Positions 15,275-16,320 of a stretch of 64,000 nt of DNA are shown piece after piece. The notes below the pieces were generated by a model, which made no database searches, was not told the origin of the DNA, and was given only the letters and a program-made list of their open reading frames with translations. Position numbers and translations under genes: made by a program. The stretch comes from Chryseobacterium sp. (GTDB lineage Bacteria > Bacteroidota > Bacteroidia > Flavobacteriales > Weeksellaceae). Position 1 is the first letter of the stretch; each line of letters starts with the position of its first letter. The stretch is from assembly GCF_029240215.1 (NCBI RefSeq), contig NZ_JARBTK010000005.1, positions 19,813 to 83,812 on the forward strand, in the 5' to 3' direction.

Positions 15275-15346
15275 AACCGATGCCGTAAGAAAAGAAATCC
15301 TTCGACTTCCAATTGAAAAATGAGTCTTTTCGCAAATTGCTCGGTT
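15275..15346 (+). ncRNA. Y-RNA-like unit A (minimal)
   Basis: AACCGA[T]GC-CGTA ... GC-TCGGTT; ATCCTTCG box. Confidence 0.6.
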
Positions 15347-15352
15347 TTAAAT

Positions 15353-15437
15353 AACCAATGTCGTTACCATAAGAGTTCCATCGATCAAACTTATAACTTG
15401 AACAACATTCAAAACTCTTATAACCTGTTACTTGGTT
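15353..15437 (+). ncRNA. Y-RNA-like unit B (minimal)
   Basis: AACCAA[T]GT-CGTT ... AC-TTGGTT; TTCCATCG box. Confidence 0.6.
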
Positions 15438-15458
15438 TTCATTTAAAATAATTTTAAC

Positions 15459-15494
15459 TGCGTAAAAAGAATGCGCACTAACGCAATAATTTTG
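15459..15494 (+). promoter_or_regulatory. Shared regulator box + -7 element (units C-H)
   Basis: TGCGTA-AAAAGAA-TGCGCA then TAATTTTG. Confidence 0.65.
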
Positions 15495-15528
15495 TAACAA
15501 CAAAAAGTAATAACCATAAAATTAAAAA

Positions 15529-15659
15529 AAGTAAGTGTCGTAAAATAGAGTTACTTCGTTAATGGGCAGTTATACAGGTTCGAGTCCTGTTCCCGAAATT
15601 CGGGATGGCGTAATTGGTAGTGTGCTGTACACGAGTTCTGTTTGATTTTTTACCTTACT
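15529..15659 (+). ncRNA. YrlA-like unit C (permuted tRNA domain)
   Basis: GTAAG[T]GT-CGTA...AC-CTTAC; T arm ACAGG-TTCGAGT-CCTGT, closed stem TCCCGA/TCGGGA, weak D arm. Confidence 0.7.
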
Positions 15660-15666
15660 TAAAAAC

Positions 15667-15737
15667 AATCGATGTCGTAAGAAAGAGTTCCTTCGAATCC
15701 AAATTGAAAAAAGTCTCTTTCAAATTTTTGCTCGATT
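15667..15737 (+). ncRNA. Y-RNA-like unit D (minimal, paralog of A)
   Basis: AATCGA[T]GT-CGTA...GC-TCGATT; TTCCTTCG box. Confidence 0.6.
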
Positions 15738-15771
15738 ATAAAAACTATAAACATTAAAACTATAAAATAAA

Positions 15772-15906
15772 AATCAAGTGTCGTCTTAGAATCATACTTC
15801 GATATCCAAACATTGGGTCGCAGGTTCGAATCCTGCCTTTCTTAAGGAAAGTAGCTCAGTTGGTAGAGCAAATGCACTGAAAGATTCTTAATTTTTTACC
15901 TTGATT
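15772..15906 (+). ncRNA. YrlA-like unit E (permuted tRNA domain)
   Basis: AATCAAG[T]GT-CGTC...AC-CTTGATT; GCAGG-TTCGAAT-CCTGC, CTTTC/GAAAG, TAGCTCAGTTGGTAGAGC. Confidence 0.8.
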
Positions 15907-15907
15907 A

Positions 15908-16023
15908 ATAAGAGTGTCGTAGAGAAAACTTACTTCGGTAAATCTTATGATATTGGTTCAACTCCAAAATAAGCCATGAAAGATGGCTTATATATTGGTT
16001 TTCTCGCCTTTTACCTCTTTTAT
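15908..16023 (+). ncRNA. Y-RNA-like unit F (T-arm-like hairpin + long hairpin)
   Basis: AAGAG[T]GT-CGTA...AC-CTCTT; TTGG-TTCAACT-CCAA; ATAAGCCAT/ATGGCTTAT. Confidence 0.6.
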
Positions 16024-16032
16024 AAAAATAAT

Positions 16033-16180
16033 AACAAGTGCCGTAGAATAGTGTTACTTCGCTATCAACGACGGGGTCGCGGGTTCGAGTCCCGCCTCTT
16101 CCACAACGAAACACAAATTTAGAAGGGAGAGTAGCTCAGCTGGTTAGAGCGCGACTGCGCTTTTTGATTGTTGCCTTGTT
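16033..16180 (+). ncRNA. YrlA-like unit G (permuted tRNA domain, 22-nt acceptor loop)
   Basis: AACAAG[T]GC-CGTA...GC-CTTGTT; GCGGG-TTCGAGT-CCCGC, CTCTTCC/GGGAGAG, TAGCTCAGCTGGTTAGAGC. Confidence 0.8.
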
Positions 16181-16189
16181 TTTTAATAT

Positions 16190-16320
16190 TAAAGTGTCGT
16201 AGAGAAAAGTTCCATCGTCACATTTTGGGGAGGAATAACGAGGCAGATAATTCCTACAAGGTTATCCGGTTCGACTCCGGCACAGACTTGCCCCGTTCTT
16301 TTCTCGATTGTTGCCTTTAT
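16190..16320 (+). ncRNA. Y-RNA-like unit H (T arm only)
   Basis: TAAAG[T]GT-CGTA...GC-CTTTA; CCGG-TTCGACT-CCGG. Confidence 0.6.

Follow-up and report, generated by a model that had tools for sequence, protein, structure and literature searches.

Directly downstream of the only Ro60/Rsr (TROVE) gene in a Chryseobacterium sp. genome, eight consecutive units of 71–148 nt each fill positions 15275–16319 of the plus strand of the window analyzed here, a stretch of 64,000 nucleotides from contig NZ_JARBTK010000005.1. With a probability of roughly 0.7, we read this array as a polycistronic set of Y RNA paralogs that would dock on Ro through a constant module, and that would represent a Bacteroidota subfamily of the Y RNAs. 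An initial annotation, made from the letters of the window, had already proposed Y-RNA-like genes linked to Ro, and this proposal is supported by the position of the array, by a bulged helix common to all units, by a GYCGUA(R) motif on its 5′ strand and by sub-threshold matches to the Rfam model of YrlA. The division of each unit into a constant module and a variable, type-specific inner domain (cargo) is real as well: the unit types keep a syntenic order within the genus, and the same division recurs beside TROVE genes across Bacteroidota.

Eight units with a common module

Each unit is closed by a terminal stem (P1), which measures 6, 6, 7, 6, 7, 5, 6 and 5 bp in units A to H, respectively. 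On the 5′ strand, P1 is followed by a bulged U, by two base pairs (P1b; G-C and then Y-R or U.G) and by an unpaired CGU, after which an A mostly follows. A second stem (P2) has 6–8 bp and a purine-rich 5′ strand; in unit G, 4 bp are contiguous, and the ortholog alignment gives 8 bp interrupted by a bulge. Every unit has a box of the form (A/U)U(A/C)C(U/A)UCG, which in B–F and H is directly apical to P2, and the 3′ side of the units consists of the P2 strand and then a U-rich stretch with a UU-R-C end. The units, with the number of related loci in which orthologs were found where counted, are as follows:

15275–15346, plus strand: unit A, 72 nt, minimal hairpin type, orthologs in 36 loci; P1 AACCGA/UCGGUU, bulged U at 15281, P1b GC/GC, P2 of 7 bp, box at 15297–15305 and then a 5-bp hairpin with the loop CUUCCAA
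15353–15437, plus strand: unit B, 85 nt, hairpin type, orthologs in 24 loci; P1 AACCAA/UUGGUU, bulged U at 15359, P2 of 7–9 bp, box at 15376–15384
15529–15660, plus strand: unit C, 132 nt, constant module and YrlA-like permuted tRNA domain with a degenerate D arm
15667–15737, plus strand: unit D, 71 nt, minimal hairpin type, orthologs in 18 loci; P1 AAUCGA/UCGAUU, box at 15688–15696, apical loop AUCCAAA
15772–15906, plus strand: unit E, 135 nt, constant module and full YrlA-like permuted tRNA domain, orthologs in 63 loci
15910–16019, plus strand: unit F, 110 nt, T-arm-like hairpin UGGUUCAACUCCA and variable 9-bp hairpin, orthologs in 40 loci
16033–16180, plus strand: unit G, 148 nt, constant module and permuted tRNA domain, orthologs in 59 loci
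16190–16319, plus strand: unit H, 130 nt, constant module and unpermuted D-arm-less tRNA-like domain, orthologs in 30 loci

P1, the bulge, P1b, the internal loop and P2 are all present in the predicted minimum free energy structures of the eight units, and from these folds every unit has the size (about 70–150 nt) and the end-paired, bulged stem expected of a Y RNA. The initial annotation had described eight units of this anatomy at 15275–16320; the description is accurate, since all eight were located and their folds keep P1, the bulge and P1b. It had also claimed that the terminal stems differ in sequence yet stay paired within one genome, and the pair types indeed differ between units: beside the bulge, P1 has an A-U pair in units A, B and D and a G-C pair in the other five, the third P1 pair is C-G, A-U or G-C, and double changes are seen at several P1 positions. 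The composite 5′ motif TGYCGT-N6-18-[ACT][AC]C[AT]TCG has 21 matches on both strands of the 3.72-Mb genome, eight of which fall within the 1,045 nt of the array, all on the same strand, where about 0.002 would be expected from the density of the other 13.

Variable inner domains

Five kinds of cargo were distinguished, including a permuted tRNA-like domain (C, E and G), an unpermuted one without a D arm (H), a T arm plus a hairpin (F) and short hairpins (A, B and D). The elements that define the YrlA domain, namely a T arm, an acceptor-like stem-loop, U8-A9, a D arm and an anticodon-stem-like closing helix, are all found in E and G, and in C with a degenerate D arm; the permuted domain is absent from units A, B, D, F and H. 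In a 28-sequence alignment, the domain of unit E consists of a T arm, a closed and covarying acceptor-like hairpin, UA, and a D arm closed by CAUU/AAUG. Unit G follows the plan of YrlA with an acceptor stem of 7 bp, the strands of which are joined by an A-rich linker of 22 nt; one acceptor pair covaries (CG in 17 and UA in 13 of 30 aligned sequences), and after the 3′ strand of the stem this genome has A-CAA, whereas several species have A-CCA. In unit F, the box itself forms a UUAC-UUCG-GUAA tetraloop hairpin, which precedes the T-arm-like and the variable hairpin. Unit H has a GGGG...CCCC closing helix, a long anticodon-arm-like hairpin and the T arm CCGGUUCGACUCCGG, in the order of a normal tRNA and without a D arm. 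The cargo classes of the initial annotation hold for most units; H, which it had taken for a partial permuted tRNA, is shown by the ortholog alignment to have an unpermuted tRNA-like domain.

Controls lend support to these structures. Pairs with compensatory changes number 14 (of 37) in the 29-sequence alignment of H, compared with 1–6 in slid controls; the corresponding figures are 9 compared with 1–4 for E, 6 compared with 0–5 for G and 4 compared with 0–2 for F. The paired fraction observed in these four alignments was reached by none of 200 column shuffles.

Conservation within Chryseobacterium and Epilithonimonas

Conservation was followed in 80 loci around close TROVE orthologs of Chryseobacterium and Epilithonimonas, four of which stop at a contig edge before the position of the array. 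A covariance model (R1) built from the minimal units (A and D types and their orthologs) scores unit A, a member of its training set, at 86.5 bits and picks up the untrained unit B at 29.8 bits (E = 1.5e-5 in the 64-kb window) and unit G at 22 bits. It was dropped as a general detector, being too type-specific: it missed E and H and had two chance-level matches elsewhere in the window. A joint model from a MAFFT alignment of the eight units was likewise given up, as the 5′ halves align and the 3′ ends do not. Because of the type specificity of R1, and because MAFFT places the 3′ strand of P2 wrongly, we used a motif-plus-pairing scanner of our own together with per-type alignments. The scanner demands the 5′ motif, the box and the P1/P1b partner, and allows any base at the bulge.

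It found 401 units, with 2–10 per locus in all of the 76 loci that reach far enough, at most about 4 kb from TROVE. The array lies downstream of TROVE on the same strand in 75 of the 76. The exception is a Chryseobacterium metagenome-assembled genome (L092, 577–1111, minus strand). Its array, made up of A, B, D and E, has the inverted orientation and is found some 3.4 kb upstream of a TROVE gene that breaks off at residue 362, owing either to a rearrangement or to a misassembly. When typed by similarity to the units of the window, the units recur in the conserved order A-B-(C)-D-E-F-G-H, apart from losses and duplications in particular lineages.

Among the 385 distinct units from the 76 loci, the bulged base is U in 100%, the second P1b pair is C-G in 205, U-A in 163 and U-G in 17, and each P1 position shows two to three types of Watson–Crick pair. 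When modules were chosen by the 5′ motif only, a full 6-bp P1 partner was present in 82% of 457, compared with 21–26% in controls with reversed or swapped stems. For a given unit type, hardly any variation is seen between species in P1, P1b or the box, and the covariation of P1 is therefore one between paralog types and not between orthologs.

The units also follow the TROVE gene in their occurrence. Of 121 sampled genomes of the genus, 88 have an orthologous TROVE gene, and units E–H were matched at E ≤ 1e-33 in every one of these; among the 33 genomes without it, 28 have no unit match and five have weak matches only, one of these five carrying a TROVE remnant with stops and another only a distant paralog. 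Similar units unlinked to TROVE in other genomes, which the initial annotation had named as grounds for giving up its proposal, were thus not encountered, as no strong match occurs without an orthologous TROVE gene in the 121 genomes.

Distribution across Bacteroidota

Module clusters with the 5′ module, the bulged U and the P1 partner are found downstream of TROVE in a second family of Flavobacteriales (4–5 units), and three further families of Bacteroidia have 2–7 units beside TROVE. Single copies of the module are present in some genomes of other classes of the phylum, and none of six further TROVE loci has the 5′ module pattern. In GC-rich genomes P2 turns GC-rich as well, with UGYCGUAG and AUACUUCG unchanged. 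Genome-wide counts of the pattern in five genomes revealed clusters at the TROVE locus only (5 of 7, 5 of 6 and 6 of 24 matches), the rest being scattered singletons at the level of controls. Multi-unit arrays are the rule in this clade and not a peculiarity of the present genome, in which the number of eight is an expanded case.

A distant TROVE paralog (35–38% identity, about 464 aa), which occurs in other Weeksellaceae and in some Chryseobacterium, is preceded by two RNAs, both of which carry GGUGUGA...GUUACUUCG (L011, 2680–2812 and 2815–2895; the same layout in L012–L019). The first of the two is scored by Rfam as a tRNA of 130 nt; it is unpermuted and tRNA-like, with the anticodon arm replaced by the module. 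As judged from sequence, the box in combination with a GY(C/U)G element is a signature of Ro-linked RNAs across the phylum.

Relation to known Y RNAs

An Rfam scan at gathering thresholds reported nothing in the array. The expected likeness to YrlA (RF02553) stood in part: an Infernal search matched unit E at 50.0 bits (E = 8e-10, model positions 1–114), unit G at 36.1 bits (E = 8.3e-6) and unit C at 26.3 bits (E = 0.0055), all three below the curated cut-off of 69 bits. In the array, the models of tRNA (RF00005) and permuted tmRNA (RF04321) reached 16.9 bits against a cut-off of 29 and 25.1 bits against a cut-off of 47, respectively, and ARAGORN made no call there.

Bacterial Y RNAs have a conserved GNCGAAN0-1G near the 5′ end, which is the likely Rsr site, and YrlA has a conserved YUAY before its tRNA-like part (Chen et al., PMC4201824); at the place of the latter the units have UUAC, UUCC or AUAC. 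The array resembles YrlA of Salmonella Typhimurium and Mycobacterium smegmatis in several respects: the gene adjoins rsr on the same strand, the ends pair into a stem, and a GNCG-type motif and a YUAY-like element are present, as is a permuted tRNA-like domain in E, G and C, with an acceptor stem of 7 bp in G as in M. smegmatis YrlA. Unlike YrlA, the module of the array has both strands of the bulged helix and an additional conserved UUCG element, and three such RNAs stand with five others in a single array. Both strands of the Ro helix are retained by the Deinococcus radiodurans RNAs, whereas those of Salmonella and Mycobacterium retain the 5′ strand only (PMC4201824).

The second Y RNA of each species studied is a hairpin without a tRNA-like domain (Chen et al., PMC4201824). 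Compared by description only, units A, B and D are similar to YrlB and to D. radiodurans Yrn2, in that all three are long hairpins that lack a tRNA-like domain and have a small apical loop, in part rich in pyrimidines; the difference is that here three paralogs carry the same module as the tRNA-like units.

Several small RNAs are also clustered at the rsr locus of D. radiodurans (Yrn1, Yrn2 and RNAs a, b and d), and the statement of the initial annotation that bacterial Ro60 loci usually have one or two Y RNAs is therefore too low, as this species has three more at rsr besides Yrn1 and Yrn2. There, Yrn2-tRNA-Asp-Yrn1 is made as a polycistronic precursor, and the present array is probably polycistronic as well. 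In contrast, D. radiodurans has no more than five such RNAs, which are encoded upstream of rsr and of which only two have a clear Ro-binding helix, whereas here there are eight (up to 10 or more in relatives), all with the bulged helix module. In another Bacteroidia family, the Y-like array encloses a true tRNA gene (50 bits; L103, 7354–7425), an arrangement that recalls Yrn2-tRNA-Asp-Yrn1.

The Ro-binding helix of vertebrate Y RNAs consists of a stem, a single 5′ pyrimidine bulge, two pairs, an internal loop and a further stem, and in humans the Y RNA genes form a cluster on a single chromosome. The plan of the helix, and the existence of paralogs with a common Ro site (predicted in the array) and different loops, are thus shared between the array and the metazoan Y RNAs (RF00019; hY1, hY3, hY4 and hY5). 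The metazoan RNAs differ in the bulged base (C compared with U here) and in the motif (GGUCCGA compared with UGYCGUA here), and they are transcribed from separate RNA polymerase III genes, whereas the units here would be polycistronic and have tRNA-like cargo. With a bulged two-strand helix on the one hand and permuted tRNA domains on the other, the array combines a helix of metazoan style with cargo of YrlA style.

Genomic context

The surroundings of the array comprise the following features:

13429–14987, plus strand: Ro60/Rsr (TROVE) gene, Pfam TROVE E = 5e-29, the sole TROVE locus of the genome
4463–10152 and 11269–12369, plus strand: upstream run of RNA-repair-type genes, assigned by protein family matches
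2128–4316, plus strand: 15 tRNA genes, of 53 in the genome, which head the island

The array starts 287 nt past the stop codon of the TROVE gene on the same strand, in the proximity expected of a Y RNA gene. The TROVE protein shares 97% identity with its C. formosense counterpart. Its gene is split by a deletion of 1 nt near 14556 into open reading frames (ORFs) of 13429–14559 and 14547–14987; all of the 69 aligned orthologs have one base more at this site, so that the deletion is unique among 70, and orthologs have open frames of 506–570 aa.

The upstream genes on the same strand look like an RNA-repair island. Their products include an RNaseH-like protein (PF04308), an ATP-grasp and an R2K ATP-grasp protein, cREC_REC and an Rnl2-type RNA ligase with T4_Rnl2_C, followed by a calcineurin-like phosphoesterase, two RNase T-like exonucleases and then a Band-7/SPFH protein. 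Many of 72 related loci have parts of this run in synteny upstream of their TROVE gene. Relatives also carry tRNA arrays upstream of TROVE, as does another Bacteroidia family (L103, 11 tRNAs).

Between the exonuclease genes and Band-7 there are two further permuted tRNA-like cores on the plus strand (10669–10735 and 10749–10802), each with a T arm, a closed acceptor hairpin and a D arm, which the YrlA model scores at 23 and 33 bits. The second core runs into a match to the tRNA model at 10777–10851 (38.6 bits), where ARAGORN makes no call; the UGYCGU/box module was not recognized at either core. The Flavo-1 RNA motif has sub-threshold matches at 15063–15155 (minus strand) and 11013–11089 (plus strand), with scores of 29.6 and 33.3 bits where the cut-off is 42, and the copy between TROVE and the array exceeds the cut-off in L003, L005, L006 and L008; these copies may be a repeat element. 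Just past the terminator of the array, two small overlapping helix-turn-helix ORFs (HTH_11/HTH_28 and CENP-B_N) occupy 16333–17113 on the minus strand. They are kept at that place in 35 of the 72 related loci and are thus probably not debris of an insertion sequence.

Transcription of the array

Two features bear on the transcription of the array:

16325–16357, plus strand: strong intrinsic terminator, a stem of 15 pairs and a T run, which closes the array after unit H
15487–15494, plus strand: candidate internal promoter −7 box TAATTTTG in the spacer between B and C, for which the evidence is weak

The spacers between successive units from A to H are 6, 91, 6, 34, 3, 13 and 9 nt long, which is too short for most units to have promoters of their own. 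From this spacing and the single terminator, it follows that the array would be transcribed as one or two precursors. The sequence TAATTTTG matches the −7 promoter box of Bacteroidetes, but it lacks an upstream TTG, and the plus strand of the window holds 46 such matches. A sigma-70 promoter scan was discarded; it found fewer sites than in shuffled sequences, and the sigma-70 model is not applicable to promoters of Bacteroidota. The same 91-nt spacer (15438–15528) holds CUGCGUAAAAAG, which resembles a decayed 5′ module, and extra units of the A/B type occupy this position in relatives.

Weighing the interpretation

Several results weigh against the assignment of the array to the Y RNAs. The curated cut-off of the YrlA family is reached neither by any unit nor at any related locus, and the metazoan Y_RNA model (RF00019) has no match at E ≤ 10 over 14900–16500. 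The G-Y-C-G-U-A-(R) of the units fits GNCGAA at five of six positions, with U for A at the fifth. Thermodynamic z-scores against shuffled sequences range from −0.2 to −3.6, and only unit F (z = −3.6) is better than all shuffles; folding energy was dropped as evidence because most units are not significantly above shuffles, so that the support for the units is comparative and not energetic. As rsr is frameshifted, the system may be inactive in this assembly, or the assembly may be in error. The counts of co-occurrence are drawn from related genomes and are not independent. Finally, a comparison of units C, E and G, and of the pair of tRNA-like elements upstream, with the tRNA species of the genome gave best matches that were weak and unspecific; as no mimicry of a particular tRNA was evident, nothing computational yet indicates distinct partners.

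This last result would suit an explanation that we consider unlikely, in which the units are redundant gatekeepers or a dosage array: all of them would do the same job on the Ro ring, by occupying, gating or stabilizing it, and the inner domains would be nuclease-resistant caps. Protection from nucleases has been proposed as one role of the tRNA-like fold (Chen et al., PMC4201824), and the range of 2–10 units per species suggests that single units are dispensable. However, each type of cargo is separately conserved, in a fixed order and with compensatory changes in type-specific helices, which argues for type-specific selection, and five structurally distinct classes exceed the needs of a cap.

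The setting of the locus raises another idea, which fits the evidence less well and is improbable: the units might be tRNA-mimicking decoys or sensors belonging to the RNA-damage island, acting on anticodon nucleases, the ligase, RNase P or the CCA enzyme, with the shared stem as a signal for processing or stability and not as a Ro site. The array does lie in an island with 15 tRNA genes and repair-type genes, TROVE is flanked by tRNA arrays in other families too, and five of the eight units have T-arm-like elements. Yet A, B and D retain the full module without any tRNA-like part, the module tracks TROVE and not the repair genes across the phylum, and its architecture is that of known Ro-binding helices. 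That the units are non-functional repeats or decaying duplications, or that they serve the rsr transcript in cis, for instance as stabilizers in its 3′ untranslated region, is very improbable: the tight packing behind rsr, the break of rsr in the assembly and the possible decayed unit between B and C would fit, but the module is conserved phylum-wide with a bulged U invariant in 385 distinct units, and there are compensatory changes and tRNA-like domains with intact T and D arms.

Two further candidates were rejected. Three ORFs overlap the array, and neither a protein-coding signal nor a match to a protein family was found in them; a mobile repeat was discarded in view of the strand specificity and synteny of the array and its restriction to the TROVE locus.

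Proposed mechanism and significance

If the array is a set of Y RNA paralogs, its one or two transcripts would be cut in the A/U-rich spacers and then trimmed to the terminal helices, so as to yield separate RNAs. RNase P cleaves M. smegmatis YrlA, to which CCA is added (PMC4201824), and unit G, with its acceptor stem of 7 bp followed by A-CCA or A-CAA, may be cut and tailed in the same way. The constant module would then bind Ro, as its likeness to known Ro-binding helices suggests, and the variable domains would tether Ro to different partners or gate it differently, which is the least supported step. Plausible partners would be PNPase and the enzymes of the upstream island, such as the Rnl2-type ligase, the phosphoesterase and the two RNase T-like exonucleases. 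Additional Y RNAs have been suggested to widen the range of Ro complexes (PMC4201824), and it is plausible that different cargoes lead to different Ro partners in line with this suggestion. The array might thus act as the adaptor library that the initial annotation had envisaged, giving one Ro protein many specificities. A bolder version of this model is doubtful: Ro60 in Bacteroidota would be a programmable hub served by 2–10 adaptors with one docking module, each of which would couple Ro to a different island enzyme, to PNPase or to a class of damaged RNA, and some of which would be matured by RNase P and CCA addition.

Y RNAs, YrlA and rsr loci with several RNAs are already known. Our literature search, the coverage of which was partial so that a prior mention is possible, found no account of arrays of this kind, with 8–10 paralogs in a conserved order, added classes of cargo and a phylum-wide module. 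As the module is invariant across the phylum, stays below the curated Rfam threshold and is specific to Ro loci, it could be used to annotate a missing Y RNA subfamily of Bacteroidota. The partnership of Y RNAs with Ro itself is known, the role of their variable halves is largely open, and the partner of YrlA's tRNA-like domain is unknown (bioRxiv 10.1101/312249). The recurrence of tRNA arrays and RNA-repair genes around these loci provides a context for the proposed role of Ro in responses to RNA damage. As a single genome would supply eight RNAs with one predicted docking module and five kinds of inner domain, and its relatives up to ten or more, the model of Y RNAs as tethers would become directly testable by a comparison of their partners.

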